Shown in pieces: positions 6,650 through 64,000 of a stretch of 64,000 nucleotides of DNA. Within the stretch, counting starts at the first letter, position 1, and each line of letters opens with the position of its first letter. The translations under genes and the position numbers were made by a program. Source of the stretch: Nitrosomonadales bacterium (GTDB lineage Bacteria; Pseudomonadota; Gammaproteobacteria; Burkholderiales; Gallionellaceae); contig JADJWO010000001.1 of NCBI GenBank assembly GCA_016716325.1, forward strand, positions 497,142-561,141. The letters are read 5' to 3'. A model generated the notes under the pieces. That model was not told the DNA's origin, did not search any database, and saw only the letters and a program-made list of their open reading frames with translations.

Positions 6650-6790
6650 AAACAATTTCCGACATCCTGCGGCACACGCGCCAATGCATGGGCTCATTGT
6701 TCAGTCGTACAGCTTGATGAGCTTGTGGATGCGTCAAACTGCATCACTGATAAACGCAGTCGGATGAATCGCAGCCTAGCCATGAATCGA
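6650..6790 (+). pseudogene. 3'-terminal remnant of a tyrosine-integrase gene (copy of the int 3' end at 30148-30267)
   Basis: Roughly 90% nucleotide identity by eye to the last ~120 nt of int. No upstream integrase coding sequence is present. Confidence 0.7.
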
Positions 6791-6924
6791 CGGGAAAGGC
6801 TTGGGAATGAAAGTCCCAAAAAAGTCCCAGTGGAAAGAAAAATGGGTTAGATCATATTTGACCTAACCCATTGATTATATGGCGCGCCCGAAGAGATTCG
6901 AACTCCTGACCCCTTGGTTCGTAG
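6664..6924. repeat. left copy of a ~260-bp imperfect direct repeat (partner at 30148-30406)
   Basis: By-eye alignment runs from atcctgcggca... to ...ccccttggttcgtag. The repeat includes a conserved hairpin (tgggttag...ctaaccca) and the tRNA 3' segment. Confidence 0.85.
6880..6924 (-). other. 45-nt 3' fragment of tRNA-Arg(ACG); distal att-type repeat of the island
   Basis: tggcgcgcccgaagagattcgaactcctgaccccttggttcgtag is identical to 30362-30406, which runs from the CCA end to the anticodon loop. Identity stops there: ttccaa on the left versus ccaagt on the right. Confidence 0.9.
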
Positions 6925-7105
6925 TTCCAAACTGAAAGCGTATCCATATGATTATTAACCGATAATGCCGTGGCGACCGTTGCAACTGTTGCACCACAAT
7001 GCATAACCGTTCATAACTGATTTACGCAAAAGTCACGCACAAAACACTAAGGCCTGGGTAGTCATTGTCACGCACAAATCACTAAGCCCCACCCTTCCTA
7101 TTCAC

Positions 7106-7531
7106 TCAAAATGGCTCAGCGCGCGCTATTTCCAGCAGTTCCTCGTCGCTCATAGCCTCAAGTCTGGAGAGATAGGCTTTGCCGCTATCGGTCACATCAA
7201 CCGTGTGCCGTTCTGGGCTATAAAACCCGCACATCTTCGCGATCTCACGCCAGCCTGCTATGACCGTGGCGGGGTCGTTCTTAAGTTTCGCCACATGGAT
7301 GGCATCCTGAAGCTCCAGAAGCACCTCTGCGCGCGTTAAATCGAGCTCTCTGGCGGTCTGTGCCTCGCGCACGGCTAGAGCGGCTAAAACCTTATGATTT
7401 CTTAACAGCAGCGAGCCGGTAACATGGGCCGAGGATACAGCGAACCCCGCTCTTCGCGCGGCGTCCGAAGCGCAGCGGCTGATGGAATATTCTTCGACAA
7501 AACGGGCTTGGCGGGCTGTAAGTTTCTGCAT
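7106..7531 (-). CDS. phage terminase small subunit (Terminase_2/P27-like)
   Basis: MQKLTARQARFVEEYSISRCASDAARRAGFAVSSAHVTGSLLLRNHKV... fits the LTxxQxxFvxEY...AAxxAG...LL pattern of small terminases. Start moved to ATG 7531. Confidence 0.75.
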   Translation of the reverse strand: MQKLTARQARFVEEYSISRCASDAARRAGFAVSSAHVTGSLLLRNHKVLAALAVREAQTARELDLTRAEVLLELQDAIHVAKLKNDPATVIAGWREIAKMCGFYSPERHTVDVTDSGKAYLSRLEAMSDEELLEIARAEPF

Positions 7532-7835
7532 GGCTGACAACTCCCTTCTTCGCACACAGATCATCGTTCGAAGTGCTTCGTGCGATGTGCGGATTATACC
7601 GCTAATACCATGTATTGTATGGGTTTATATGAGCATCCGCTGGCAGCATCCAAAGCATAAATCCTGCTCAGATTGCTATGTGATGCGCCCGCTTATGCTT
7701 TTTCGATGACTCTGGCAACATCGCCGCGACACTCAGAGCACAAACCCACCAACAGGTCGTGCGCTACTACGAGAAGCACTAAGTGGACGGGCATTATCGG
7801 GGGGGGCTGTTAGTGCGGATGATGCTGGATATGAC

Positions 7836-8390
7836 ATGTTGCTTGCAAGTGCTGTATCGCAGAATGAGTTGTATATCTGTGATTGGCTGATGCAGCATGG
7901 GGCGATGCTTGCGCATGAATCGAGCAAAGTTGTGCTGTATAACGATAACTCGGCACTCCTGCAAAAGTTGATTGATTACACACCAAATGGTTTGAGTGCA
8001 TTTGTTAAACTTAACAATTTATGGTTGGAGTCAATTGCCACCGGAGCTAAACGTTGTGAACCTATTATCGCAAGAGCGATGCTCCACACTGCATCATCCA
8101 CAGACCGAGTTAAAACTCCAAATGGGTATTGTGTGCAGCTTTGTATCGCTGCGCGATATGGATTTATTGATGAGTTTGAGAATCTGGTTCTCAAGGGGGC
8201 AGACCCCAACGAGAGCCTCGACGCGTTTTCGTTAGAAAATATGCCGCTTGTTTGGGCAGTACATTATAGGCAATTAGCCATATGTCTTCGTTTGCTAGCG
8301 CTAGGGGCCAAGATTGCACCTATATCATTATTGGCCAACCTATCTGACCGAGAATGGTTCTATAAAAATGTACTAGATGAAAATCTTTAA
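7836..8390 (+). CDS. ankyrin-repeat-like protein (low-GC cargo)
   Basis: At least two ANK-like repeats: NGYCVQLCIAARYGFIDEFENLVLKGADPNE and MPLVWAVHYRQLAICLRLLALGAKI. Confidence 0.45.
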   Translation: MLLASAVSQNELYICDWLMQHGAMLAHESSKVVLYNDNSALLQKLIDYTPNGLSAFVKLNNLWLESIATGAKRCEPIIARAMLHTASSTDRVKTPNGYCVQLCIAARYGFIDEFENLVLKGADPNESLDAFSLENMPLVWAVHYRQLAICLRLLALGAKIAPISLLANLSDREWFYKNVLDENL

Positions 8391-12561: not shown

Positions 12562-13212
12562 ATGAAAATCGAATCCAACTATTTCGCCGAGCTGGCGAAG
12601 ATCAACGTCAACGAACACATCGAACGCAAAGGCCAGTTCTCCTATCTGAGCTGGCCGTTCGCTGTCGCCCAGCTACGGCAGTTCGACGCCACCGCAACGT
12701 GGGAAGTGAAACGCTTCGACGGCCTGCCGTATCTGGCAACAGACACCGGCTGCTATGTCGAAGTCTCCGTCACCGTGCGCAGCATCACGCTCTCACAGAT
12801 TCATCCGGTGCTCGACAGTAAAAACCGCCCCTTGCTCACCCCCAGCGCCTTCGACATCAACACCTCGATTCAGCGCTGCTTGGTCAAGGCCATCGCCCTG
12901 CACGGCTTGGGGCTCTATATCTATGCCGGAGAGGATTTACCCGATGAACAAAATGATCCTAAAACACCGTCACAACCATCACCATCGTCACCCACGGTAC
13001 GGCAGTTCCAGAAGCCCAAAGCGGTGAGCGACTCAACCGAGCCGCTGACCGTCAATCAGCTGCGTTTCATCAAGAAACTGATCTCTGAAACCGGCACTGA
13101 CGAAGAACAGCTACTTGGCTTCTTTGGCTTCGACGCACTGGAGAACATCCCCAAGGTCGAGGTGAACCGTGTCCTGAAGATGCTCGAAGGCAACCGCAAG
13201 GAGGCAGCATGA
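12562..13212 (+). CDS. Rad52-like single-strand annealing protein (Sak/DUF1071 type)
   Basis: FSYLSWPFAVAQL... and ...RCLVKAIALHGLGLYIYAGEDLP match the signature pattern of Sak/DUF1071 recombinases. Confidence 0.7.
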   Translation: MKIESNYFAELAKINVNEHIERKGQFSYLSWPFAVAQLRQFDATATWEVKRFDGLPYLATDTGCYVEVSVTVRSITLSQIHPVLDSKNRPLLTPSAFDINTSIQRCLVKAIALHGLGLYIYAGEDLPDEQNDPKTPSQPSPSSPTVRQFQKPKAVSDSTEPLTVNQLRFIKKLISETGTDEEQLLGFFGFDALENIPKVEVNRVLKMLEGNRKEAA

Positions 13213-14069
13213 AAGCGCTCATGAAGATGGTACAGGGTAGCCCGGAGTGGCACGCGCATCGTGCGCAGTACCGCAATGCCAGCGAGACCGCAGCGGTATG
13301 CGGTGCGTCGCCTTGGATGACGCCCTACGAACTATGGCTGGTGAAGACTGGCCGCAAAGTCGTGGAGGAGAATGCAGCCATGCGCCACGGCACCCAGATG
13401 GAGCCCGCTGCGCGTGCCGCTTTCGAGGAGGTCTCCGGACTCATCATGCAACCACAGGTGGTGGTCGATGGGCTGTACTCAGCCAGTTTGGACGGCATCA
13501 CGCTAGGCGGCGATACCCTCTTGGAGATCAAATGCCCCTTCAAGGGGGCGGTATCCGAGCTATGGCAGTCGGTAAAGTCAGGCACGGTGCCCGAGCACTA
13601 CCAGCTTCAGGTGCAGCACCAGCTGATGGTGACGGGGGCAAGGCAAGCGTATCTCTGGGTGTACGACGGCAACGTCGGCATCAAGAACCTGATCCAGCCG
13701 GACGAAATCATCTTTGCTCGGATTCGGGAGTGCTGGGAATTGTTTCAGCCGTTCCTCGACGGGGATACACCGCCACCGCTCACTGACCAAGACACTTGTA
13801 TCCGAACAGATCACAAGTGGCAGACCGCCGCCGAGGAGTACCGAGGCTGGAAATCAGTGGCCGACGAAGCCTCGGCCAAGGCGGATGCCGCCAAAGCCAA
13901 GCTGGTAGAGCTGACGAAACATTCGCGCGAGTCTGGCTTCGGTGTGGCGGTCACCCGGTACTGGAAGGCGGGCAATGTGGACTACAAGAAGGTGGTCGAG
14001 CTACAGGGTGTCGATCTGGAGCAGTATCGGGGGAAGATGCGAGAGGAGGTCAGGGTTAGCGTCGCCTGA
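13209..14069 (+). CDS. YqaJ-family (lambda-Exo-like) viral recombination exonuclease
   Basis: GSPEWHAHRAQYRNASETAAVCG..SPWMTPYELW...LEIKCP motifs. A 4-nt overlap couples it to the annealing-protein gene. Confidence 0.75.
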   Translation: MKALMKMVQGSPEWHAHRAQYRNASETAAVCGASPWMTPYELWLVKTGRKVVEENAAMRHGTQMEPAARAAFEEVSGLIMQPQVVVDGLYSASLDGITLGGDTLLEIKCPFKGAVSELWQSVKSGTVPEHYQLQVQHQLMVTGARQAYLWVYDGNVGIKNLIQPDEIIFARIRECWELFQPFLDGDTPPPLTDQDTCIRTDHKWQTAAEEYRGWKSVADEASAKADAAKAKLVELTKHSRESGFGVAVTRYWKAGNVDYKKVVELQGVDLEQYRGKMREEVRVSVA

Positions 14070-14231
14070 TTAGAAGCCTGGGCAGCGATGCCTGGGCTTC
14101 AATATTTCGCTGCATCTTGTCATGGGATGGACAATGGGATTCGAAAGGCCTATATATTCTCAGGTATTGTTCAGCGGTCCGCCTCGGGATACCATCCAAA
14201 GGGGATAAAACTAAAATCAATAAATACTTCA

Positions 14232-17200
14232 ATGAGCAATCCATTCTTTGACCACCCAATTCTGAACTCACCCTACGAATGTCCAATGAGACATTGGGAG
14301 CTTGATGATGACGGTCAGCCCACGCAGAAGACTCTTGAAACCCGCCGCCCCGCTAAGTTCATCACGCCGATCCCGAAGCCCAAGAAGCGCAAGGGCGCGG
14401 CCAAACAGGATGGATTTGTTTTCGATGACGGCGCAGGACTTTCGACGAAGGAGCAGCAATACGACCCTACTTCGATTATCAATGAGGTGCGCGGCCATGT
14501 GGATACCTGGCGCGCCTTACCCAATCCCAATCAGTGGCAGGTCACCCCTGAGACTGTTCGGCTTTTACAACACTGGCGCCATCATAAGTTCAACTCCATT
14601 CGCCCCTTTTTCTGCCAGGTAGAAGCGGTGGAAACCGCGATCTGGCTAACGGAGGTCGCCCCCCAATCCAAGCACGGCAAGCGCGTGCTCGATCATCTCG
14701 CCGCCGCGAACAAAGATGCCAATCCGGAGTTGATGCGCCTGGCTTTGAAACTGGCGACCGGGGCGGGGAAGACGACCGTCATGGCGATGCTGATCGCGTG
14801 GCAGACGATCAATGCGGTACGCCGCCCAACCAGCAAACATTTCACACGAGGATTTTTGATCTGTGCCCCCGGCCTGACCATCAAGGATCGTCTACGTGTT
14901 TTGCAACCCAACGACCCCAACAGCTATTACAAAGACCGCGAGCTGGTGCCCGGCGACATGCTCGACGACGTGAATCGGGCCAAGATCGTCATCACCAACT
15001 ACCACGCCTTCAAGCTGCGCGAGCGCATTGACCTGACCAAGGGCGGACGTCAACTGCTCCAGGGCCGTACTGGCGATGCACCACTAACACTCGAAACCGA
15101 AGGCCAGATGCTCCAGCGTGTGATGCCTGATTTGATGGGCATGAAGAACATCCTGGTCATCAACGACGAGGCGCACCACTGCTACCGTGAAAAGCCGCAT
15201 GACCGGAGACGACGAAAAGGCCAAAGGGGACGAGAAGGAAGGAGGCCAGGGAGAAGAACAACGAGGCCGCGCGCCTCTGGATCTCCGGCCTCGAAGCCGT
15301 GAACCGCAAGCTCGGCCTCAGTCGCGTCATCGACCTGTCGGCGACGCCCTTCTTCCTGCGCGGCTCGGGCTATGCCGAAGGCACGCTGTTTCCCTGGACG
15401 ATGAGCGACTTCTCGCTGATGGACGCCATCGAATGCGGCATCGTCAAGCTGCCGCGTGTGCCGGTGGCGGAGAACATCCCCGGCGACGAGATGCCGGTGT
15501 TCCGCAACCTGTGGGAGAACATCCGCAAGGACATGCCGAAGAAGGGCCGGGGTTCGAATCAGGACCTCGACCCGCTGAAGCTTCCCACCCGCTTGCAGAC
15601 CGCCTTGCAAGCGCTCTACGGCCACTACGAGAAGACCTTCAAGCTGTGGCAGGAGAAGGGCATCAAGGTGCCGCCCTGCTTCATCATCGTCTGCCAGAAC
15701 ACCGCCATCTCCAAGCTCGTCTACGACTTCATCTCGGGCTTCCAGCGCAAGAACGACGATGGCACCACCACGCTGGAAAACGGCCGCCTCGCCCTGTTCC
15801 GCAACTTCGACGAAACCACCGGCAACCCGCTGCCGCGCCCGAATACGCTGCTCATCGACAGCGAGCAGCTCGAAGCCGGCGACGCGCTCGACGACAATTT
15901 CCGCGGCATGGCCGCCGACGAAATCGGGCGCTTCCGTCGCGAGATCGTCGAACGCACCGGCGACGCGCACGCCGGCGACAACATCACCGACCAGGAACTG
16001 CTGCGCGAGGTCATGAACACCGTCGGCAAGGCGGGCCAGCTCGGCGGCTCGATCCGCTGCGTCGTCTCGGTCTCGATGCTCACCGAAGGCTGGGACGCCA
16101 ACACCGTCACCCACGTGCTCGGCATCCGCGCCTTCGGCACGCAACTCCTGTGCGAGCAGGTCATCGGCCGCGCGCTGCGCCGCCAGTCCTACGACCTCAA
16201 CGAGGAAGGGCTGTTCAACGTCGAATACGCCGACGTCTTCGGCATCCCCTTCGACTTCACCGCCAAGCCGGTCATCGCCCCGCCGCAGCCGCCGCGCGAA
16301 ACGGTGCAGGTGAAGGCCGTGCGGCCGGATCGCGACCACCTGGAAATCCGGTTCCCGCGCGTCGAGGGCTATCGCGTCGAGCTGCCGGAAGAACGCCTGA
16401 CCGCCGAGTTCAACGACGATTCCATCCTGATACTCAGACCCCGATCTGGTCGGCCCATCCATCACCCACAACTCCGGCATCATCGGCGAAGGCGTGGACC
16501 TGAGCCTCAAGCACCTGGGGACCTGCGGCCCTCCACGCTTGTCTTCCAGCTGACCCAGCGCCTGCTCTACACCAAATGGCGCGACCCGGGCGAAGGGACC
16601 GAAGCTATCCCTCTTCGGCCAGCTCAAGCGGATCGCCAAGCAATGGCTCGACACCTGCCTGGTCTGCAAGGGGGACACCTATCCGGGCTTGCTCATGTAC
16701 CAAGAGCTGGCCGACATGGCCTGCAACAAGATCACGCCGGCATCACCGGCGCTTCCTCGACGAGCGGCCGATCAAGGCACTGCTCGATCCCTACAACCCC
16801 ACCGGTTCGACTCGGCATGTGCGCTTCAACACATCCAAGCACGACCGCTGGGAGACGAGTTCAATGCATTGCCACATCAACTGGGTGGTGCTCGACAGCG
16901 ACTGGGAAGCCGAATTCTGCCGGGTCGCCGAGTCGCACCCCAAGGTGTTGGCCTATGTGAAGAACCACGGCCTCGGTTTGGAAGTGCCGTATCGCTACGC
17001 CTCCGAGATGCGCAAGTATCTGCCCGACTTCATCGTGCTGGTGGATGACGGCCACGGTGACGATGACCTGCTGCATCTCGTCGTCGAGATCAAGGGCTAC
17101 CGGCGCGAGGACGCCAAGGAGAAAAAATCCACCATGGACACCTACTGGGTGCCCGGCGTAAACCATCTCGGCAGCTATGGCCGCTGGGCGTTTGCCGAGT

Positions 17201-31992: not shown

Positions 31993-33690
31993 ATGCCTGA
32001 GATCGTACCGCGCAACATACCCGAACTGGCCCTGCGGCATTTGCTCGACAGCGGTCACCCCTCTGCCTTGGCAAAGATCTTCGCGGCGCGGGGCATCACC
32101 GACAACCGGCAACTTGAAACTTCGCTCGCCGGACTGCTGCCGTTCGACAACCTGAAAAACATCCATGAAATGGCGCGCCATCTGGCCGACGCCATCGCTG
32201 CACAAGACAGCATACTGGTCATCGCCGACTATGACGCGGACGGCGCGACCGCCTGCGCAGTGGCCGTACGCGGGTTGCGTGCCTTTGGCGCGCACATCGA
32301 CTTCCTCGTGCCGAACCGTTTTGAATACGGGTACGGGCTGACGCCGGAGATCGTGCGACTGGCCGCCCGAAGTGAGCCGGACATCCTGTTGACGGTGGAT
32401 AACGGCATCGCCAGCATCGAAGGCGTGGCGGAAGCCAACCAGCTCGGGATGCGCGTGCTGGTCACCGACCATCATTTGCCCGCCGATGCCTTGCCGGATG
32501 CCGCGAGCATCGTCAATCCCAATCAGCGCGGATGCGCCTTTCCAGACAAGCACTTGGCGGGCGTGGGCGTGATGTTCTATGTGCTGCTGGCGTTGCGCGC
32601 GGAACTGCGCGCACGCGGCACATTCACCGATTGTCCCGAACCCAGGCTTGCCGAACTACTCGATCTCGTGGCCCTGGGCACGGTTGCCGACGTGGTCAAA
32701 CTAGGCCAGAACAATCGCATCCTGGTGCAGCAGGGCCTGCAGCGCATCCGTGCCGGACGCGCCTGCGCCGGCATCAAAGCGCTGTTGCAAGTGGCAAGGA
32801 AAGACCCAGCCCACACATCCAGCCAGGACCTGGGCTTTGCCGTCGGCCCGCGCCTGAACGCAGCCGGGCGACTGGACGACATGAGTCTTGGCATCGAATG
32901 CCTGCTGTCCGACGATGCCGCAACCGCGATGCGGATCGCGACCCGGCTGGACGCCCTCAACCGCGAGCGACGCACCATCGAGACCGACATGCAGGAAGCG
33001 GCGCTGGCGGCGCTCGAGTCGGTCGAGCCAAGCGAAAGTTTCAGTCTCGCGCTGTTCGACGAAAACTGGCATCAGGGCGTGATCGGCATCCTCGCTTCGC
33101 GCCTCAAGGACAAGTTCCATCGCCCGACCATCGCCTTCGCGCGCGCCAATGACGGTGAACTGAAAGGTTCGGGACGTTCCATCTCCGGATTGCACCTGCG
33201 TGATGCGCTGGATCTGGTCAGCAAACGGCATCCTGCGCTGATCAGGAAATTCGGTGGTCACGCCGCAGCCGCCGGCCTGAGCATCGCCGAGGCCGATTTC
33301 GACCGGTTCGCCTCATCCTTCGAACAGGTCGCCAGCGAACTGCTCGACACCGACGACCTGACTCAGCGCATCGAAACGGACGGCTCGCTGGAACATGCGG
33401 ACATGACGCTGGAAACGGCGCGCCTGCTCGAAGACCAGGTGTGGGGACAGGGCTTCCCCGCGCCGCAGTTCAATGACGACTTCATCGTGCAGGGCCAGCG
33501 CGTGGTCGGCGAAAAACATCTCAAGTTGCGTCTGGGAATACAGGGGAGATCCATGGACGCGATACTGTTCGGTCAAAGCGAACCGCTGCCGGAGCGCGTG
33601 CATCTCGTGTACAGCCTGGGCGTCAATGAATACAATGGCACGCAGGATCTGCAACTCATCGTTCGGCAGTGGCAGCACACGAAAGGGTGA
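31993..33690 (+). CDS. recJ: single-stranded-DNA-specific exonuclease RecJ
   Basis: DHH motifs (IADYDADGATA, TVDNG, LVTDHH) and a DHHA1 region (GGHAAAAG). 565 aa. Confidence 0.9.
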   Translation: MPEIVPRNIPELALRHLLDSGHPSALAKIFAARGITDNRQLETSLAGLLPFDNLKNIHEMARHLADAIAAQDSILVIADYDADGATACAVAVRGLRAFGAHIDFLVPNRFEYGYGLTPEIVRLAARSEPDILLTVDNGIASIEGVAEANQLGMRVLVTDHHLPADALPDAASIVNPNQRGCAFPDKHLAGVGVMFYVLLALRAELRARGTFTDCPEPRLAELLDLVALGTVADVVKLGQNNRILVQQGLQRIRAGRACAGIKALLQVARKDPAHTSSQDLGFAVGPRLNAAGRLDDMSLGIECLLSDDAATAMRIATRLDALNRERRTIETDMQEAALAALESVEPSESFSLALFDENWHQGVIGILASRLKDKFHRPTIAFARANDGELKGSGRSISGLHLRDALDLVSKRHPALIRKFGGHAAAAGLSIAEADFDRFASSFEQVASELLDTDDLTQRIETDGSLEHADMTLETARLLEDQVWGQGFPAPQFNDDFIVQGQRVVGEKHLKLRLGIQGRSMDAILFGQSEPLPERVHLVYSLGVNEYNGTQDLQLIVRQWQHTKG

Positions 33691-34986: not shown

Positions 34987-36091
34987 ATGGAAGCCGAACA
35001 ACTCAACGCCTTGTCCAACCAGCTGCAGGATCTCGCCTCGCGCAGCGCAGAATTGCGGAGGTATCTTTGACTTCGATACCAAGCAGGAACGCCTGACCGA
35101 AGTCTGCGAACTCGCCGAAGACCCGGCCATCTGGCAGGACGCCAAACGCGCCCAGGATCTGGGACGTGAGCGCAAGTCGCTGGAAACCGTTGTGCTCGGC
35201 CTGACGAAGATTCGGCAGGACATCACTGACGCCTCGGAACTGTTCGAGATGGCCCAGGCTGAGAACGACGAGGACAGCCTGAACGGCATCGCGGACGATG
35301 TCCGGGACATCGAAAAACGCGTTGCGGAAATGGAATTCCGCCGCATGTTCTCCAACCCGGCAGACCCGAACAACTGCTTCATCGACATCCAGGCCGGCGC
35401 AGGCGGTACCGAAGCCTGTGACTGGGCTTCCATGCTACTGCGCCAATACCTGAAATACTGCGAACGCAAGGGCTTCAAGGTCGAAGTACTGGAACAGACC
35501 GACGGCGATGTCGCGGGCATCCGCAGCGCTTCGCTCAAGGTCGAAGGCGAATATGCCTATGGACACCTGCGCACCGAGACCGGCGTGCATCGCCTGGTGC
35601 GCAAATCGCCGTTCGATTCTTCCGGCGGACGACACACCTCCTTTGCCAGCCTGTTCGTCTCGCCCGAAGTGGACGACTCCATCGAGGTGGACATCAACCC
35701 GGCCGACCTGCGCATCGACACCTTCCGCGCCAGCGGCGCGGGTGGCCAGCACATCAACAAGACCGACTCAGCGATCCGCATCACCCACGCGCCGACCGGC
35801 ATCGTCGTGCAATGCCAGAGCGACCGTTCGCAGCATCGCAACAAGGCCGAAGCGATGGCCATGCTGAAATCGCGCCTGTACGAACTGGAACTGCGCAAGC
35901 GCCAATCCGAAGCGGACAAGCTGGAAGCCTCCAAGACCGATGTGGGCTGGGGCCACCAGATACGATCCTATGTGCTCGACAACTCGCGCATCAAGGATCT
36001 GCGCACCAACGTCGAGATCTCCGCCACGCAAAAAGTGCTCGACGGCGACCTCGATGCCTTCATCGAAGCCAGCCTGAAGCAAGGCGTTTAA
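34987..36091 (+). CDS. prfB: peptide chain release factor 2, expressed through a programmed +1 frameshift
   Basis: ORF0 is [27 protein letters not shown] followed by in-frame TGA at 35068. ORF1 resumes at 35069 ([12 protein letters not shown]...) and contains SPF and GGQHINK motifs. Confidence 0.95.
35057..35070 (+). promoter_or_regulatory. prfB autoregulatory frameshift site
   Basis: ggaggtatCTTTGAc: an internal SD-like GGAGG lies 3 nt upstream of the slippery CUU-UGA-C, essentially the E. coli arrangement. Confidence 0.9.
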
Positions 36092-36093
36092 CA

Positions 36094-37368
36094 ATGTCCG
36101 AGCATGACGAAAATTCGCTAGCTGAATTTTTCGCACCCGGCATCGTCCCGAATGACGTAGAGCAATTTTTCCCACTGAACAAAGCCAAGCCACTGATTGG
36201 CGCGATGATCGCGCTGTTTCGCGGTGGTGATGAAGAAGTGCTGGTGCGCCTAGTTATATTGCGCGAGATTGGCCTTCGTGCTGATGCGCCGGACTGGTCT
36301 CCGCGTGAACTGGAAACGCACTTCGCGTTTTTCGCTTCAGCAAAACTCAATACTGTACTCAGCCGTTTGCGCGAACACGAACTACTGCTGTGGGATGTAG
36401 AACGCCGCGTTTATCGCTTATCCACCGCTGGTCGCATGGTGTTGGCGGCACTATCCAACCTTCTTTCGTTCAGCGCCGAGGCTGATAGCGAATTGGGATT
36501 TTATGCCGCCCAAGTCGCTGCTGGTTCCGCCGTCGGAAAACTATCGCCCGAAGCACTGTCACACCTGCTGGCACGCCTCACCGAACTGGAAGATTCGTTT
36601 GCCCAAGCAGTCGCCTCCGGCTCTGAGTTTCGTTTGCGTGCCGCACAAAGCCAACTCCAATCAGTATGGAAGTGGATGGAGAAAGGCAACGAAGTGCTGA
36701 AGAACCTCGGTGAATCTGGACTTGCTGATGATGCCAGTTGGCGGCTGGCACAGGAAATCGGCTCACGCCAATCGCGCATCATGCGCATGTCATCTGTATT
36801 CCAAAGGGAGCTTGCCGCCATTGCGCGACAGCAAGTGCATTTATCGCAAGGCGGGCTCACCTCCTCCGAATTGGCTATATGGCTCAAAGAACGCACGATA
36901 GATGAACTAGTCGTTCTGTCTGATCAACAACTCGCAGTCGTTCCTGAAGCGACCTTTGTACTACCCGATGTGATGGTGGATAACACCGAAGATTTCATCG
37001 AACGCGAACAACCCACGCGGCGTGTCTCCACACTGCCCCCGCCCGCTGCCATCGAACACACCCAAGACATCCCACACGAACCGCCGCCGCAACTGGCTGC
37101 GCTTATCCGCCTACTTTCCGCCTTACCTCAAGCAATGTCTGTCACCGATGCCGTGGTTGGAGACAATTTCAGCGCGGCTTCCTATCGCATGTCATTGCTG
37201 GCATTTATTGGCGAACAAAACGTCGATCCGGAACTCGCGCCGTTGGCAACGCTGCCATTAACTGTGTATTGGGATAACAGCAGTAACGAATTGCACCCCG
37301 TGCATCGCAACGAAGTCGCCTCCATGAGCGCGGGCGAACTTATTCCTTTACAGGAGAACTCAAAATGA
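36094..37368 (+). CDS. jetA: JetA/MksF-like (kleisin-like) subunit of a Wadjet-like system
   Basis: 424 aa and the first gene of the four-gene operon. Winged-helix-like N-terminus (VRLVILREIGL...VYRLSTAGRMVLAAL), helical middle, conserved-looking C-terminal domain. Assigned by position and architecture, not by an HMM. Confidence 0.5.
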   Translation: MSEHDENSLAEFFAPGIVPNDVEQFFPLNKAKPLIGAMIALFRGGDEEVLVRLVILREIGLRADAPDWSPRELETHFAFFASAKLNTVLSRLREHELLLWDVERRVYRLSTAGRMVLAALSNLLSFSAEADSELGFYAAQVAAGSAVGKLSPEALSHLLARLTELEDSFAQAVASGSEFRLRAAQSQLQSVWKWMEKGNEVLKNLGESGLADDASWRLAQEIGSRQSRIMRMSSVFQRELAAIARQQVHLSQGGLTSSELAIWLKERTIDELVVLSDQQLAVVPEATFVLPDVMVDNTEDFIEREQPTRRVSTLPPPAAIEHTQDIPHEPPPQLAALIRLLSALPQAMSVTDAVVGDNFSAASYRMSLLAFIGEQNVDPELAPLATLPLTVYWDNSSNELHPVHRNEVASMSAGELIPLQENSK

Positions 37369-38030
37369 ATCACGACCCTGCCGCGCGGCTGATTGCGCGC
37401 TTACTGGCGATGCGCTACTTGCCGCGTGAAGATGCAGAGGTACGCCGCTTGCTGATCGACAGCAGCTTCCGCGATGAAGTGGATCAGCGCCTTGCCACCT
37501 GCGGCATGCGCCTACTGTCGCAACCGTTTGCCGCCCATGTCGGCATCGCTCTCACCCGCGATATCGAGAGCGCAGTATTCGAGCAGCACGACACCTGGCA
37601 AGCCAGCAACATCGGCCTGCCCAAAGACGCGGTGGCGCTGCTGGTGATTCTGTGGGCGCTCATCATCCTGCCCAAGCGCGAGCGCCAGCTGGCGGGCGAG
37701 GCGGCGCAACAGGAGTCGCAAAGCGAGCTGTTTGAGACCGTAAAACTCACGCCGCTTGCGCACGAAGCCTCGCGCGGCATCGCCGAAAATATTCTGCTGG
37801 AAGACTATGGCAAGTTGCTGGGTGGGAAAACGCGCCTCGAAAAATTTGCCCTTGCTCCACTTTCTCGCCTCGGTTTTATTGAACGCAAAAACAAAGTCAT
37901 CCACGAAGGCCCATTGCTCGACCTCGCCTTCGACTACGCCGAAATGGCTCCGCGCATCCTCAACGGCGCGCTGGCCGACTTGCTGAAAAAACGTGGCGTG
38001 CTGGCCGAAGTTACCCCGGAGGTCAACTGA
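37365..38030 (+). CDS. jetB: JetB/MksE-like small subunit
   Basis: 221 aa. ATGA overlap with the upstream gene. Its size and position match the KITE-like subunit (DUF4194) of Wadjet operons. Confidence 0.45.
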   Translation: MNHDPAARLIARLLAMRYLPREDAEVRRLLIDSSFRDEVDQRLATCGMRLLSQPFAAHVGIALTRDIESAVFEQHDTWQASNIGLPKDAVALLVILWALIILPKRERQLAGEAAQQESQSELFETVKLTPLAHEASRGIAENILLEDYGKLLGGKTRLEKFALAPLSRLGFIERKNKVIHEGPLLDLAFDYAEMAPRILNGALADLLKKRGVLAEVTPEVN

Positions 38031-40804
38031 TGTTTCGCCTGCTCGAACTGGAAACCGTACATTGGGACTACTGGCAGCGCTTCAAATTGCCGCTGGATGC
38101 TTCCATCATCACCATCGTCGGCCCCAACGGCTCGGGCAAGACCACGCTACTCGATGCGCTGCGCACGCTGCTGGCGCTGGAATGCTCGAAGAAGCGCGAT
38201 TACAAACGTTATGTGCGGCGCAACGGCGAAGACTTCTGCTGGCTGCGCGGCGTGGTGGATAACCAGCGCCCGCCCGGCTCAAGCCGCCGCCCGTTCGGTC
38301 TGCCCTACCAGCAAGACCGCATCACGCTGGCTTGTCGCATCGACAAGAAAGGTGGCGACTGGGTGCGCAAATATTGGGTGGCGGAAGGCGAAGTATCGCT
38401 GGAAGACATCGAGCAACAGGGACAGGAATTCGGCGTGCGCGATTATCAGCGCCTGCTGCACAGCGCCGGATTGTCGCCCGCTATCGCGCGCGTGTTGTCG
38501 CTGGAACAGGGGCAAACCGACAAGCTGTGCGAGCTTTCGCCCAAAGAATTGCTTGAGCTGGTGTTTCAGGTGTTTGGCGACAAGGAAGTGCTGGAGCGCT
38601 ATCAGGAAGCGCGCCACCATCAGGAGTACACCTCGCGCGAACTGGATGCAGTGCAGCGAAATTTGGAAGCGCTTGGTTATAGCCTCAAAACACACGAACT
38701 GAACGTAAATCGTTATCTCGAATGGCAGCGCCTAAACGAAGAGCGCACCGTGCTGGTGTCGGAAACGCGCCCGCGCCTGGAACACCATCTGCTGCAAAAA
38801 GAAGCCGAGAACGCGGGGCGCACATTGCAGGGCTTACGCCGCGACTGGCGCGGCAAGCGCGCCGAGCGCCACGCGCTGACGCTGGAACTGCAAGTGCAGC
38901 AGCAAGCCCTGCAAGCGGCGCAGTTGCGCAAGCAGGCCGCGCACGAAAACGAGCAAGTGCAACAGCGCGCGCTGAACGAACTCAACCGCGAACTGGGCAA
39001 CTGGGAAGCCCTCGTCAAACAGCATGACCGGCTGTTGCAGCAAGTTGAAAGCGCGGGCGGCCAAGCCGCCGATGCGCGCGAACTGGAGCATCTGGAAAAC
39101 GAGCGCGACCGTCTGCGCTTGCGCATCGCCGAACTGGAACAGCAGCAGCGCCAACTGGACGAGATGCTGGAAAACCTCGCCGCCGGACGGCGCAGCGATC
39201 CCGCCGATGTCGCCGCGTTCCGTCAAGCGTTAAGCGGCGCGGGCATCGCCCACGATTTGCTCACCGATCTGGTGGAGATCGTCGATCCGTCTTGGCAAGC
39301 CGCCGTGGAGGCCGTGCTGGCGCCGTTCGCACACATCGTGTTGCTGGCGAAAGAAAAAGATGCGGAAGCGGCGATGGCGCTCGGCGAAAAATTGCGCTAC
39401 CGCCATTTCATCGTGCCGGAACGCAGCAAGCCCGGCCTCGCACCGCAAGGTTCGTTGCTGGAAGTGGTGCGCTTTGCGCAGCCGGTGCCGGAATGGTTGT
39501 TGCGGCTGCTGGAACGCATCCGCCGCGTGGAAGATGCCAACGCGGGCGCGAAACTGCCGCGCGGCGAAGACTGGATCACGCGCCAGGGTTATTTGCGCGA
39601 GCGGCGCGGCGGACGTTTTGCCGCACCGGAACAGGCGCGCTTCGGCAAGGCGCGGCTGGAATCGCTGCGCCAGCAACGCGCCGATCTGGAAAAAATCCTC
39701 GCGCCATTGCGCCAGCAACGCGATGACTTGTCTGCGCGCCTGAACAATCTTAAAGCGCAACTCGCCGGAGAAGATGCCAGCGCGCGACTGGCTGCGCGCG
39801 CCGCCGAGTTTGCCGAGGCACGCCAACACTATGACGTGCTGGTCATCAAACGCCGCGACAACGGCGTATTTCAAGCACAGCAAGATCGCGAACAAGCAGA
39901 TGATGCGGTGGTTGCGGCAAACAGCACACTGGGGAATATCCGCCAGTTCATGCAAAGACTGGACAAAGAAATCGCCGAAAAAGAAAACCGCCCCGCGCGC
40001 GAAGAACAAGCTAAACGTTTACAACGCTTGCGGCATAATCGCCGGCAAATGCCCGCAACTTGGCGCGATGCGACAGCCAATCAGCTAATCGCCGAACAGT
40101 GGCGCGACAGCACCAACATCGAAAGACGCATCCACGAAATCGAAGCCCGCTTTGCCGATGAATCGTGGGAAACCGATGCCAGCGTGATCGTGTTACGCGA
40201 CAAAATTCGCGATGACTACGCGCATCAGGAAAGCGATTTGGCCACGCGCCGCCGCGACAACGAAATGGCGCGCAGCCAGACCGATGCGGCACGCGAGCAA
40301 TACATCGCCGTGCTGCGTTACACCATCGCCCGCTATGTGAAAAATCTCAAGGTGCTGGGCGAAATGGCCGGCATCAAAGTCGAATACGAACCCGTGTCAT
40401 TGGCCAACGGCGACGATGTCACGCTATCGCAAGCCGGGCTGGCAGTGCGCTTCGACTTCGACGAGAAGGGCTTCATGGGTATGAACGACGGCGATGCTTC
40501 CGGCGGACAGCAAGTGATGAAATCGCTGATCCTGCTGGTCGGCCTGATGATGGAAGAATCGCGCCCCGGCGGCTTCGTATTCATCGACGAACCGTTCGCC
40601 CACCTCGATATTGTCAACATCGAGCGCGTCGCCTCTTTCCTCAAAGCCACCCGCGCGCAATACCTGCTCACCACCCCGGTCACACACAACGTCAGCGTGT
40701 ATGACCCGTCCATGCTCACGTTGGTGACGTTCAAGAAACGGCCAAACGATGCGTGGGCTCCGCGTATTGGTGTGTTGGTGCGCGAACAACATGAGCACGC
40801 TTGA
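38030..40804 (+). CDS. jetC: JetC/MksB-like SMC-family ABC ATPase
   Basis: Walker A IVGPNGSGKTTLLDAL at the N-terminus. About 550 aa of R/Q/E/L/A-rich coiled-coil-like sequence. C-terminal signature ASGGQQ and Walker B FVFIDEPFAHLD. 924 aa. Confidence 0.7.
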   Translation: MFRLLELETVHWDYWQRFKLPLDASIITIVGPNGSGKTTLLDALRTLLALECSKKRDYKRYVRRNGEDFCWLRGVVDNQRPPGSSRRPFGLPYQQDRITLACRIDKKGGDWVRKYWVAEGEVSLEDIEQQGQEFGVRDYQRLLHSAGLSPAIARVLSLEQGQTDKLCELSPKELLELVFQVFGDKEVLERYQEARHHQEYTSRELDAVQRNLEALGYSLKTHELNVNRYLEWQRLNEERTVLVSETRPRLEHHLLQKEAENAGRTLQGLRRDWRGKRAERHALTLELQVQQQALQAAQLRKQAAHENEQVQQRALNELNRELGNWEALVKQHDRLLQQVESAGGQAADARELEHLENERDRLRLRIAELEQQQRQLDEMLENLAAGRRSDPADVAAFRQALSGAGIAHDLLTDLVEIVDPSWQAAVEAVLAPFAHIVLLAKEKDAEAAMALGEKLRYRHFIVPERSKPGLAPQGSLLEVVRFAQPVPEWLLRLLERIRRVEDANAGAKLPRGEDWITRQGYLRERRGGRFAAPEQARFGKARLESLRQQRADLEKILAPLRQQRDDLSARLNNLKAQLAGEDASARLAARAAEFAEARQHYDVLVIKRRDNGVFQAQQDREQADDAVVAANSTLGNIRQFMQRLDKEIAEKENRPAREEQAKRLQRLRHNRRQMPATWRDATANQLIAEQWRDSTNIERRIHEIEARFADESWETDASVIVLRDKIRDDYAHQESDLATRRRDNEMARSQTDAAREQYIAVLRYTIARYVKNLKVLGEMAGIKVEYEPVSLANGDDVTLSQAGLAVRFDFDEKGFMGMNDGDASGGQQVMKSLILLVGLMMEESRPGGFVFIDEPFAHLDIVNIERVASFLKATRAQYLLTTPVTHNVSVYDPSMLTLVTFKKRPNDAWAPRIGVLVREQHEHA

Positions 40805-41978
40805 TTCGATCCGGATCGAACTGCTTGATGAGCGCGCACTGTGCAAGCGCCGCCGGCGATTTCGCACTAAGCCTGCCAGCGAACTCGAACTAATCCCCTC
40901 CGATTGGCGTGAACTGTTAACCCGCTGGGTGAGACGCGGCGGCAAAAGCCGTTGGGAAACACTGCTGAAAGACTCTGGCACAGCCAACCTGCCGCTCGCC
41001 GATGCACTGCGTGAATGGCTGCTACGCCAAGGCTGGGCTATCATCATCGAAGAACGCGAGCATGGCGACTGGTGGCCGCGCTCAATGGAACTGCGCAACT
41101 TGCCGCAACTGCGCGCCGCGCTCGGAATCAGCGACAAAGAGCAGAATGCACTTCGCTGGCAAGAACTACGCGAAACGTTGGCGAGCCACTGCGACAACAA
41201 TCTGGCTCCCGCATTACTTGCACTGGATGAACTCCCCTTACATCGCGCTTTGGCACGCGCTGATTTAATCGCTGCCTTGCAGCGCTGGCAGGAAGCGCAA
41301 CGCAACGGCACTCGCCGCGACTTCGCGCTGTTTTCGCGCGGCGACACCAAATCGGTCAGCAATAGTATGTGGGACTGGCTGGAATCGGTGCTCGATCTGG
41401 CCGAATTTGGCATCGAAGGTCACACGCCGTTGCTGCTGCTCGCCACACCACTGCTGCTTTACCTGCCGCATGGGCAAATCGATCTCGCTGCCAACCCGGA
41501 CTTTGCCGCGATCACGCCTGAAACCATGCAGGCTGTAACGAAAACATCAGGAACGATCAACCGCTGGCAACTGGTAGAGAACCGCACCAGCTTTGAGCGC
41601 GTCGCCAAACAACGCGAACTGGACGCGGGTGTTATCTGGCTGCCCGGCTTCCCGCCGACTTGGTGGCGCGCGGCTGTCGGCCATCTGCTTGATCTGGCTC
41701 CCGCACCAGCCCAACTGGCCTGCGACCCGGACCCGGCAGGCATCGCCATCGCTCTCAAGGCTGCTGAACTGTGGCGCGAACGCAAACTAGACTGGCAACC
41801 GTGGCGGATGTCCGCCAACGACCTCTCTGCCCTGCGCGTGCGCAAGCCTCTGACCGAGGGTGACAAGCTGCAACTCGCCACCCTGAGCCAGGAACCCACA
41901 CTCCCCGCCCCGCTATCCGAATTGCTGGAATGGATGCTGGAACATGGCGAAAAGGGCGAGCAAGAAGGGTATCTGTAG
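40791..41978 (+). CDS. jetD: JetD/MksG-like Toprim-domain protein (putative nuclease subunit)
   Basis: 395 aa. Toprim-type motifs WQLVENRTSFE (catalytic Glu) and LACDPDPAGIAIA (DxD). A 14-nt overlap couples it to the ATPase gene. Confidence 0.6.
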   Translation: MSTLDSIRIELLDERALCKRRRRFRTKPASELELIPSDWRELLTRWVRRGGKSRWETLLKDSGTANLPLADALREWLLRQGWAIIIEEREHGDWWPRSMELRNLPQLRAALGISDKEQNALRWQELRETLASHCDNNLAPALLALDELPLHRALARADLIAALQRWQEAQRNGTRRDFALFSRGDTKSVSNSMWDWLESVLDLAEFGIEGHTPLLLLATPLLLYLPHGQIDLAANPDFAAITPETMQAVTKTSGTINRWQLVENRTSFERVAKQRELDAGVIWLPGFPPTWWRAAVGHLLDLAPAPAQLACDPDPAGIAIALKAAELWRERKLDWQPWRMSANDLSALRVRKPLTEGDKLQLATLSQEPTLPAPLSELLEWMLEHGEKGEQEGYL

Positions 41979-42046
41979 CCCTGAAAACCCCGTCCCTGTG
42001 CTATATTTCACGCCGCCAAAATTAACCTTCAGTCATACAGAACATC

Positions 42047-43549
42047 ATGAGCAACGAACCCATCATCCCAGCCCAAGACGAGAACCAGATCATCGCGGAA
42101 CGCCGCGCCAAACTGAATGCGATCCGCGCACAAGGCGTCGCCTTCCCGAACGACTTCGACCGCACGCACCTCGCCGGGGACCTGCATGCCGAGTTCGGCG
42201 GCAAGACGCACGACGAACTGGAGGCCGCACAGGTCCGCGTTGCAGTGGCCGGGCGCATGATGCTGAAGCGCGTGATGGGCAAGGCCAGCTTCGCCACCGT
42301 CCAGGACATGGGCGGGCGCATCCAGTTGTTCGTCAGCAATAACGATACCGGCGAGGAAGCGCACGACGCGTTCAAACATTACGATCTCGGCGACATCCTC
42401 GGCGCGCAGGGCGTGCTGTTCAAGACCAAGACCGGAGAACTGTCGGTGCGCGTCTCGCAAATCCGCCTGCTGACCAAGTCGCTGCGCCCGCTTCCGGAAA
42501 AATTCCACGGCCTGACCGACCAGGAGCAGAAATACCGCCAGCGCTATCTCGACCTGATCACCAACGAGGATGCGCGCAAGGTGTTCGTGACGCGCACCCG
42601 CATCATCCAGGCGATCCGCGATTTCTTCGTGAACCACGGTTACATGGAAGTGGAGACGCCGATGATGCACTCCATCCCGGGCGGCGCGGCGGCCAAGCCG
42701 TTCGAGACGCACCACAACGCGCTGGACATGAAGATGTATCTGCGCATCGCGCCGGAGTTGTACCTGAAGCGTCTGGTGGTCGGCGGTTTCGAGAAGGTAT
42801 TCGAGGTCAACCGCAACTTCCGCAACGAGGGCCTGTCCACGCGCCACAACCCGGAATTCACGATGCTGGAATTCTACGAGGCGTACCGAGATTACCAATA
42901 CCTGATGGATTTCACCGAGCGCCTGTTCCGCGAGGTGACGCAAAAAGTGCTGGGCGCCACGCTCATCACTTACCAGGGCAAGGAACTTGACCTTGGCAAA
43001 CCGTTCCACCGACTGACCATGGTGCAGGCGATCCAGAAATATCATCCGCAGTTCACCGACGCGCAACTGGGCGACCGCGATTTCGTGATCAACGAACTGG
43101 AAGACCTGAAGGCCAAGTACAAGCCCGAGGACGGCATCGGCGGATTGCAGCTCTCGCTGTTCGAGGAACTGGCCGAAGCCCACCTGTTCGAGCCCACCTT
43201 CATCGTCGATTACCCGATCGAGGTCTCGCCGCTGGCGCGCAGCAGCGACACCCGTCCCGACATCACCGAGCGCTTCGAACTGTTCATCGTCGGGCGCGAG
43301 ATCGCCAACGGCTTCTCCGAGCTGAACGACGCTGAAGACCAGGCGGCGCGTTTCGACGCGCAGGTTGCGGCCAAGGATGCCGGCGACGAAGAAGCGATGT
43401 TCAAGGACAACGATTACGTGCGCGCGCTGGAATATGGCCTGCCGCCGACCGCCGGGGAAGGCATCGGCATCGATCGTCTGGTGATGCTGCTGACGGATAG
43501 TGCCAGCATCCGCGATGTGATCCTGTTCCCGCAGATGCGACCGGAATGA
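42047..43549 (+). CDS. lysS: lysine--tRNA ligase (class II)
   Basis: 500 aa. Contains ...[20 protein letters not shown]... and [11 protein letters not shown], class II synthetase motifs. Confidence 0.95.
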
Positions 43550-63043: not shown

Positions 63044-64000
63044 CTACGCGACGACCTGTTCGTCGCGGATGCGTAGCGCCTCTTCGATATCCACCGACAC
63101 GACGTTCGACACACCCTTCTCCTGCATGGTCACGCCGATCAGCTGCTCGGCCAGTTCCATGGTGATCTTGTTGTGGCTGATGAACACGAACTGGGTGTTC
63201 TGCGCCATCCGCCTGATCAGCGTGCAGAGCCGTTCGGTGTTGGCATCGTCCAGCGGCGCGTCCACCTCGTCGAGCATGCAGAACGGCGCCGGATTGAGCT
63301 GGAACAGCGAAAACACCAGCGCGATCGCCGTCAGCGCCTTCTCTCCGCCGGACAACAGATGGATCGAGCTGTTCTTCTTGCCGGGCGGCTGCGCCATCAC
63401 CTGCACCCCGCTATCGAGGATCTCCTCCCCGGTCAGCACCAGACGCGCCTCCCCGCCACCGAACAGCACCGGGAACATCTCGCCCAGATGGCGATTGACC
63501 TGGTTGTAGGTATCCATCAGCAGTTCGCGCGATTCCCTGTCGATGCGCCGGATCGCCTCCTCCAGCGTCGCCATCGCCTCGTTCAGATCAGCGGCCTGCG
63601 CATCCAGATAGGCCTTGCGCTCGGTCGCGGCCTGCAATTCCTCCAGCGCGGCGAGATTCACAGCCCCCAGTGCTTCGATCTCGCCATCCAGACGATCCAG
63701 GTCGGCCTGCAGGCTGTTCGGTTTGCGGCTGCCGGATTCCAGCAGTGGCAATAGCGCCTGCTCGTCCACGCCCTGCAACTGCTCGGCCCATTGCTCGAAA
63801 TGCAGCCGCGCTTCCTGTTCCTTGAGCGTCAATTCATTGAGCCTGTCACGCAGCGGGTTCAGCCTGTGCTCACAGGCCAGCCTTTCCTGTTCCAGTTGCT
63901 GCAGGCCGACCGTGGCATTCTCCAGCACGTTGCGCGCCTCCGCGAGTGCCTGTTCGCAGGCCTGGCGTGCCTGCAACGCATCCTGCAATTGCTGCTGCGC
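63044..64000 (-). CDS. smc: chromosome segregation protein SMC, C-terminal head portion (gene continues past the window end)
   Basis: [39 protein letters not shown] (signature plus Walker B). The frame is open to position 64000. Confidence 0.9.

Follow-up and report, generated by a model that had tools for sequence, protein, structure and literature searches.

The 64-kb stretch of Nitrosomonadales contig JADJWO010000001.1 analysed here (referred to as the window) carries four genes between prfB, which encodes release factor 2 (RF2), and lysS, which encodes lysyl-tRNA synthetase. We call these genes g1 to g4, and they probably represent a divergent lineage of Wadjet-type defence systems. All four lie on the plus strand and fill positions 36094-41978 exactly between the two housekeeping genes. 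The upstream anchor, prfB, assigned from open reading frames (ORFs) and sequence, spans 34987-36091 on the same strand, and its TAA stop codon at 36089-36091 is separated by 2 nt from the ATG of g1 at 36094. The four genes, g1 (36094-37368, 424 amino acids (aa)), g2 (37365-38030, 221 aa), g3 (38030-40804, 924 aa) and g4 (40791-41978, 395 aa), overlap at each junction: ATGA joins g1 to g2, TGATG joins g2 to g3, and g3 and g4 share 14 nt. A spacer (41979-42046, plus strand) leads to the downstream anchor lysS (42047-43549, plus strand), an ORF whose homologues contain PF01336 and PF00152 and whose ATG at 42047 lies 68 nt past the g4 stop. The initial annotation of this DNA had described four coupled, co-directional genes between prfB and lysS, and the sequence confirms both the coordinates and the overlaps. 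The closest homologues are found in Gallionellaceae (Sideroxydans-like).

The product of g3 was assigned as a structural maintenance of chromosomes (SMC) ATPase from Pfam, its motifs and its family profile. It matches Pfam SMC_N with an E-value of 1e-16, and a weak SMC_hinge match covers residues 408-506. The Walker A motif GPNGSGKT is located at residue 31, the Q-loop LEQGQ at about residue 159, the signature SGGQQ at residue 824 and the Walker B motif FVFIDE at residue 849. These motif columns are at least 98% conserved across 68 orthologues, including a homologue from a locus whose g1 is only about 20% identical to that of the window. The overall architecture is that of two head halves, coiled-coil arms and a central hinge (approximately residues 400-530). 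When the g3 family profile was compared with PDB sequences, the top matches were Smc3, Smc1 and bacterial Smc, and the hinge constructs 4rsj and 3nwc were among them. JetC, an SMC-family ATPase of the MukB-like/DUF3584 kind, was reached solely by way of Walker A, and MukB was not matched. The MukB N-terminal domain in Pfam gave an E-value of 0.27 against g3. Among the PADLOC models, JetC scores 1.9e-19, mostly over coiled coil, and LmuB scores 8.4e-19; other SMC-like defence ATPase models score as well.

The sequence of g4 identifies its product as a Toprim nuclease of the JetD type, a group with a C-terminal Toprim domain (JetD_C/DUF2220 or DUF2399): it scores 26.7 bits against Pfam DUF2399 (cut-off 23.4) and matches PADLOC JetD1 at 6.4e-15 over residues 148-393. 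The predicted Toprim residues are Glu-263, within VENRTSFE, together with Asp-312 and Asp-314, within CDPDPAG, and the catalytic-motif columns are at least 98% conserved across 58 orthologues. In a distant locus on a sediment-metagenome contig (L084), the g4 orthologue matches JetD_C (4e-19), the TOP6A Toprim domain (1e-10) and PADLOC JetD1 (5e-36).

No match to g1 was found in Pfam, PADLOC or NCBIfam, and its assignment as a candidate kleisin comes from an AlphaFold2 model searched with Foldseek. The model was built from a 63-sequence alignment that included distant relatives and reached a predicted local distance difference test (pLDDT) value of 86. It starts with a winged helix at the N terminus, continues through a long helical middle and a flexible linker of low confidence, and ends in a C-terminal winged-helix domain. 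Among full-length matches in the PDB, the best were MukF 9gm7_C (E 1.8e-3, probability 0.98), 9gm9_D, 7nz2, 1t98_B and 9gmb_C, and the Wadjet type II JetA chain 9qe1_E was also among the top full-length matches. At the fold level we assign g1 with moderate confidence as a MukF/JetA-like kleisin. The neighbouring g2 encodes a small subunit with a very conserved sequence, e.g. in the block LLVxLWALIILPKRERQ, and hhalign ties it to its L084 homologue at 99.5%. Its position and size fit those of a KITE subunit (JetB/MukE), and there is a weak, sub-threshold link to DUF4194, seen only in the distant homologues of L084 and of a second locus, L095 (E 0.0019 and 0.12); g2 is thus a candidate KITE-like subunit. 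A fold search with the g2 model returned only generic winged-helix and RuvB matches (E > 0.5); it was uninformative because the pLDDT of the model was 51, and its matches were discarded as evidence.

A kleisin fold together with a JetD-type nuclease is the hallmark of Wadjet systems (also named JetABCD, MksBEFG or EptABCD). As in these systems, the gene order is kleisin, small subunit, SMC ATPase and Toprim nuclease. The product of g4 is recognised by JetD models and has retained the E...DxD residues of the Toprim domain, the model of g1 resembles MukF and JetA, and the distribution of the genes, described below, is patchy and island-like. We therefore consider it likely, on the combined analysis, that the four genes form a divergent and so far unclassified Wadjet-type lineage, which would restrict plasmids through loop extrusion followed by Toprim cleavage. 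The Wadjet/JetABCD-like reading put forward in the initial annotation holds for g3, for g4 and, at the level of the fold, for g1. Its call of an SMC-type ATPase for gene 3 agrees with the SMC_N match, the intact motifs and the hinge, and its Toprim call for gene 4 with a DUF2399 score above the cut-off, the JetD1 match and the conserved E/DxD residues. It had also ascribed to genes 1 and 2 the size and order of a kleisin-like and a small accessory subunit: size and order agree, the MukF/JetA type II-like fold of g1 supports the first, and for g2 a KITE identity is a candidate assignment. Its guess of a divergent or unclassified subtype is in keeping with our searches, in which no JetA, JetB, MukF or MukE model matched g1 or g2.

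For type I Wadjet, loop extrusion and plasmid cleavage have been described (summarised in PMC10586767). In an analogous complex, g3 would dimerise through its hinge, and the g1 kleisin would close the g3 heads, probably bridging two motors by means of its N-terminal winged helix. The g2 protein would bind the kleisin as a KITE-like subunit, and g4 would act as the Toprim nuclease of the complex. By analogy with type I Wadjet, the ATPase would load on DNA and extrude loops; on small circular DNA, extrusion could run to completion, and the stalled complex would then license the cut by g4, so that the plasmid is destroyed.

We surveyed related loci using one genome per species and kept the best 80 of 100 loci encoding a relative of g1. 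These come from Gallionellaceae, Thiobacillus, Dechloromonas/Azonexus, Accumulibacter, Methylophilaceae and Sulfuricella, and they share the same four-gene architecture, apart from seven that lack an intact g4. The prfB gene, whose orthologues in related loci contain PCRF and RF-1 domains, lies within 150 nt upstream of g1 in 59 loci. In a further 14, prfB is upstream with an insert of 0.15-1.9 kb between the two genes; the operon is located elsewhere in 6 (e.g. between purA and rnr in L007), and the upstream sequence is uncovered in one. Upstream sequence is thus available for 79 loci, and prfB precedes the operon in 73 of them. The inserts between prfB and g1, where examined, hold either a MazE/PIN toxin-antitoxin pair or an AAA_21 and DUF4276 pair. 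On the downstream side, 12 loci have lysS immediately after g4 and 9 have it past an insert; in 30 it was not found within 1.5-3.4 kb.

As close relatives of the genome under study we took seven contigs with a LysS 87-90% identical to that of the window. None of them carries the operon. In four, prfB and lysS are adjacent at a spacing of 16-31 nt; of the remaining three, the site holds a PhdYeFM/PIN pair in one and a PAS-GGDEF gene with a PIN pair in another, and in the third lysS lies elsewhere. Since all seven lack the operon, its presence is optional, and the stretch between prfB and lysS is a hotspot of variable content. The operon is thus an accessory cassette and does not belong to the core gene set. 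The insertion between prfB and lysS that had been proposed earlier is supported by this comparison, which finds empty adjacent sites in four relatives. The same annotation had argued for an accessory complex and against a primary condensin, pointing to a canonical smc gene at 63044-64000. This gene is present: its 3' end (...DEVDAPLD) occupies approximately 63044-64000 and runs off the end of the window, on the minus strand, which had not been stated. A universal presence in the clade, which would have marked the operon as the primary condensin, was rejected on the count in the close relatives.

In seven surveyed loci g4 is not intact (L017, L018, L028, L031, L042, L060 and L033). Six of these run from g3 straight to lysS with no trace of the g4 gene, and L033 retains a g4 remnant about 1 kb from lysS. 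Five of the seven share a scar consisting of the last g4 bases and the spacer, and the retention of these bases indicates an in-place deletion of g4 in these five. Across the six loci that were compared (all except L033), g1-g3 are intact, with a ratio of nonsynonymous to synonymous substitution rates (dN/dS) of 0.03-0.2 at a dS of 0.35-0.9. This purifying selection implies that the core has a selected function without g4, so that part of the function of the system is independent of the nuclease. The g4-less clade provides a natural test of a Wadjet core without its nuclease.

These loci are also the main support for a different explanation, namely that the cassette mainly serves as a second, MksBEF-like condensin that organises the chromosome, with g1-g3 folding or segregating it and g4 dispensable or auxiliary. 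The identities within Gallionellaceae are at the level of housekeeping genes (75-93% for g2 and 73-90% for g3, compared with 81-90% for LysS), the operon is embedded within a housekeeping operon, and g3 is Smc-like. Likeness to MksBEF/MukBEF extends to the MukF-like fold, the length of g1 (424 aa, compared with 440 aa for the MukF chain), the F-E-B-like gene order and the nuclease-less derivatives under purifying selection in a related clade. On the other hand, neither MukF, MukE nor MukB is matched in sequence, the JetD-type g4 is intact in the window with its catalytic residues conserved, and the operon is not conserved among the sampled close relatives, from all seven of which it is absent. 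Moreover, a canonical smc is encoded in the same window, and the cassette is found elsewhere on an island flanked by insertion sequences (IS) and in a defence island. We therefore regard a second condensin as an unlikely account of the locus, and favour the Wadjet-type reading.

A number of results weigh against a Wadjet assignment. With regard to the ATPase, g3 appears from its sequence nearer to canonical Smc than to JetC or MukB, and at 924 aa it falls about 170-200 residues short of the solved JetC chains, which have 1096-1119 aa, as the earlier remark on its short length had anticipated. In g4, residues 1-147 are unmatched, the alignment to PADLOC JetD1 beginning at residue 148; in JetD, the N-terminal part is a CAP-like DNA-binding domain (DUF3322). 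A sequence search of g4 against PDB sequences did not find any solved JetD. With respect to the partner subunits, neither g1, nor 10 distant members of its family, nor the family consensus matched the JetA families (DUF3375, PF18982 and DUF2397), the lone trace being a faint PF18982 match (E 0.018) in one distant family member. The Foldseek E-values of g1 are weak (1.8e-3 to 4e-2) and the TM-scores low. No match to g2 was obtained in Pfam, PADLOC or NCBIfam, including the models for MukE and for JetB, whose KITE families DUF4194 and DUF2398 have tandem winged helices, and the AlphaFold model of g2 is poor, being based on a shallow alignment. Family profiles of g1 and g2 found no JetA, JetB, MukF or MukE among PDB sequences, and their consensus sequences gave no relevant Pfam match. 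The operon had no match on plasmids or viruses in PLSDB or IMG/VR. Finally, the strong purifying selection on g1-g3 in the g4-less loci implies a function that is in part independent of the nuclease; this does not extend to the window, where g4 is intact.

For these reasons the cassette should not be filed in Wadjet types I-III: g1 matches no JetA family in sequence, the ATPase is Smc-like and the link of g2 to JetB is sub-threshold. The system differs from types I-III in that g1 and g2 lie outside the JetA/JetB models (DUF3375, PF18982, DUF4194 and the PADLOC sets), in the shorter g3 with its Smc-like head and hinge, in the missing sequence match of g4 to solved JetD, and in its fixed chromosomal position behind prfB. 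The head and hinge of g3 are most similar to canonical SMC proteins, and in this respect the cassette is like Smc-ScpAB. It is unlike Smc-ScpAB in that its partner subunits match neither ScpA nor ScpB and the best folds for g1 are MukF and JetA. In addition, g3 has 924 aa compared with 1176 aa for the smc product in a related locus, and the genome has its own canonical smc. Smc-ScpAB is near-universal and vertically inherited, unlike the operon with its absence from the close relatives.

The scores of g3 on PADLOC LmuB and on other SMC-like ATPase models, together with the position of g1 and g2 outside the JetA/JetB families, also raise the question of whether the genes encode an SMC-based defence system with a target or logic other than that of Wadjet. 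Such a system could act on phage or linear DNA ends, or through Lamassu-like abortive infection, with g4 as the effector. Variation in the fourth gene suggests a sensor core that carries exchangeable effectors: in L093 (8001-17334) the g1-g2-g3 trio is followed by a 636-aa HEAT-repeat protein and then by MoxR/VWA genes. In L095 (8001-14064) the trio is followed by a 322-aa protein with weak Toprim/DUF2399 signals. However, the LmuB score, like that of JetC, arises largely from coiled coil, and g3 has a full hinge, unlike the Rad50-like LmuB. The resemblance to Lamassu is confined to this one score; genes like LmuA or LmuC are not present, and the cassette has a kleisin-like g1 and a JetD-like g4 instead, which are Wadjet hallmarks. 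We consider a non-Wadjet defence system less probable still than a second condensin.

Decay is seen in part of the family. The g3 gene is split in L052, L056, L078 and L081, and L049 and L064-L068 have insertions between g3 and g4, so that the cassette might be an inactive remnant or passenger without a current function in this genome. The four reading frames of the window are intact and overlapping, the catalytic motifs are conserved throughout the family, and purifying selection is strong. Of the explanations that we considered, an inactive remnant is the least probable, and an active Wadjet-type system is the one we retain.

Traces of how the cassette spreads are found in related loci. In L081, a copy of the last 463 nt of prfB lies directly downstream of g4 with 99.4% identity (7079-7975 and 14041-14499), in L068 the repeat measures 151 nt with 94.7% identity (5265-6161 and 15737-15892), and in L069 a decayed prfB fragment with a stop codon follows g4 (6770-6925). 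In Sideroxydans sp. CL21 (L001, 5751-18793) the operon lies away from the prfB site and is preceded, at a distance of 2 nt from g1, by a 70-codon stub of the prfB 3' end. A DDE transposase and an IS21 istA/istB pair flank the CL21 island, and a 350-aa gene with a weak, tyrosine-recombinase-like Phage_integrase match (E 0.003) is situated just upstream. The direct repeats and the travelling stub suggest recombination at the 3' end of prfB, and they point to this conserved segment as the place through which the cassette would have reached its site. The repeats are not of one length (463, 151 and about 156 nt), which appears to favour homologous, Campbell-type recombination over a fixed attachment (att) site. 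We hypothesize that a circular prfB'-g1-g4 molecule integrates by one crossover within the conserved 3' portion of prfB, an event that would be expected to leave such scars, that excision between the prfB repeats would regenerate the empty site, and that the downstream prfB copy has since been lost in the window.

Islands of the tRNA/tmRNA type, and likewise Streptococcus integrative and conjugative elements at lysS (PMC4701971), target conserved genes at their 3' ends and bring a replacement 3' end with them. The cassette is like such islands in that 3' direct repeats of the target gene flank it in L081 and L068 and the stub travels with it in CL21; it is unlike them in that no integrase is associated with it in the window or in most loci and in that the repeats vary in length. 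Placement behind prfB and the 3' repeats suggest that a defence cassette may use an essential gene as landing pad and as expression driver. The absence of an integrase and of flanking repeats had been noted before. This is true of the 64-kb window, where no integrase was found and repeats around the operon are at chance level only, which led us to reject a recent insertion with flanking repeats there; related loci do show prfB 3' repeats and an IS-flanked prfB stub. A second earlier observation, that of no obvious GC break, does not stand: g1 has a GC content of 0.54 and a GC content at third codon positions (GC3) of 0.54, compared with a GC3 of 0.79 for prfB and 0.84 for lysS. The GC3 values are 0.66-0.72 for g2-g4 and 0.76 for recJ.

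Our search of the plus strand between prfB and lysS revealed no promoter- or terminator-like sites inside the operon. Together with the 2-nt gap to prfB and the overlapping genes, this suggests co-transcription and translational coupling with prfB. The cassette has no detectable promoter of its own, and most likely depends on prfB for transcription and for translational coupling. Read-through from prfB, if real, would couple expression of the cassette to RF2 autoregulation. The spacer between g4 and lysS contains the element TGCTATATT at 41999-42007, which matches the extended -10 consensus, a sequence that occurs only twice in the window when both strands are counted. In operon-bearing Gallionellaceae, including the g4-less loci, the spacer is conserved as CCTGAAAACCCCG.C.CTGTGCTATATTTCACGCCGC, and this block is absent from the empty prfB-lysS sites with their 16-31-nt spacers. 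The element is a candidate promoter that may drive lysS anew: carried by the cassette, it would restore lysS transcription downstream of the 5.9-kb insertion.

These features permit a more far-reaching proposal, which we put forward tentatively and consider doubtful in its full form. According to it, the genes would be a fourth Wadjet lineage, intermediate between Smc-ScpAB and Wadjet/MukBEF, and carried on a promoter-less cassette that homes to the prfB 3' end, brings a surrogate prfB 3' segment and supplies an outward promoter for lysS; JetD would have been lost in at least one clade, with a nuclease-free SMC complex kept. If this is true, the loss of JetD would re-enact in nature the transition that has been proposed from JetABCD to MksBEF. 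The mosaic of an Smc-like ATPase, a MukF-like kleisin and a JetD nuclease also bears on how Wadjet and MukBEF arose from Smc-ScpAB. Literature searches returned Wadjet types I-III only, with no description of a fourth type or of a prfB-targeted island.

The g1 family is small: a set of 1.84 billion representatives holds 224 of its clusters at 50% identity. Its distant member in L084, with a g1 about 20% identical to that of the window, keeps the four-gene layout (439, 214, 928 and 481 aa) and is surrounded by a defence island comprising the type I restriction gene HsdR, a ubiquitin-like/E2/E1 module and a TCAD9 protein. PADLOC-DB v2.0.0 detected the JetC- and JetD-like parts in both the window and L084, and JetA and JetB in neither; a four-component Wadjet rule would therefore probably miss the system. 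Surveys of defence systems in the environmentally important iron-, sulfur- and methyl-oxidising betaproteobacteria and in Accumulibacter have therefore probably overlooked the whole lineage, which comprises at least 224 clusters at 50% identity.

Some further details of the related loci are of interest. The ORF between g3 and g4 in L064-L068 (approximately 12700-13570; Dechloromonas and Azonexus) encodes about 286-290 aa without a Pfam match and may represent a fifth subunit, and the one in L049 (12750-14171; Gallionellaceae) encodes 473 aa, likewise without a Pfam match. The modules between prfB and g1 are of the AAA_21 and DUF4276 type and of the MazE/AbrB-PIN type, and were seen in L029 (6152-7986), L005, L043, L073 and L069; those in the prfB-lysS interval of L088 and L091 include a PhdYeFM-PIN pair and a PAS-GGDEF gene. 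The arrangement of CL21 was seen in 15 contigs. In a comparison of L004-L083, the identity of the operon-adjacent prfB to that of the window (35192-36091) is, within Gallionellaceae, bimodal over the whole gene, at either 75-80% or 88-93%, and is independent of the identity of g1-g3: in L004, g1 is 90% and prfB 76% identical. A recombination breakpoint inside prfB was considered and rejected, segment-wise identity giving no clear breakpoint, and whole-gene allelic replacement of prfB is a possible source of this unexplained bimodality.

Upstream of the cassette, the local gene order is recJ (31993-33690), a membrane protein of the MgtC/DUF4010 type, and prfB, before g1-g4 and lysS. The prfB gene has the standard programmed +1 frameshift site, CTTTGAC, at approximately 35064-35070, and the short ORF stops at the in-frame TGA inside CTTTGAC.

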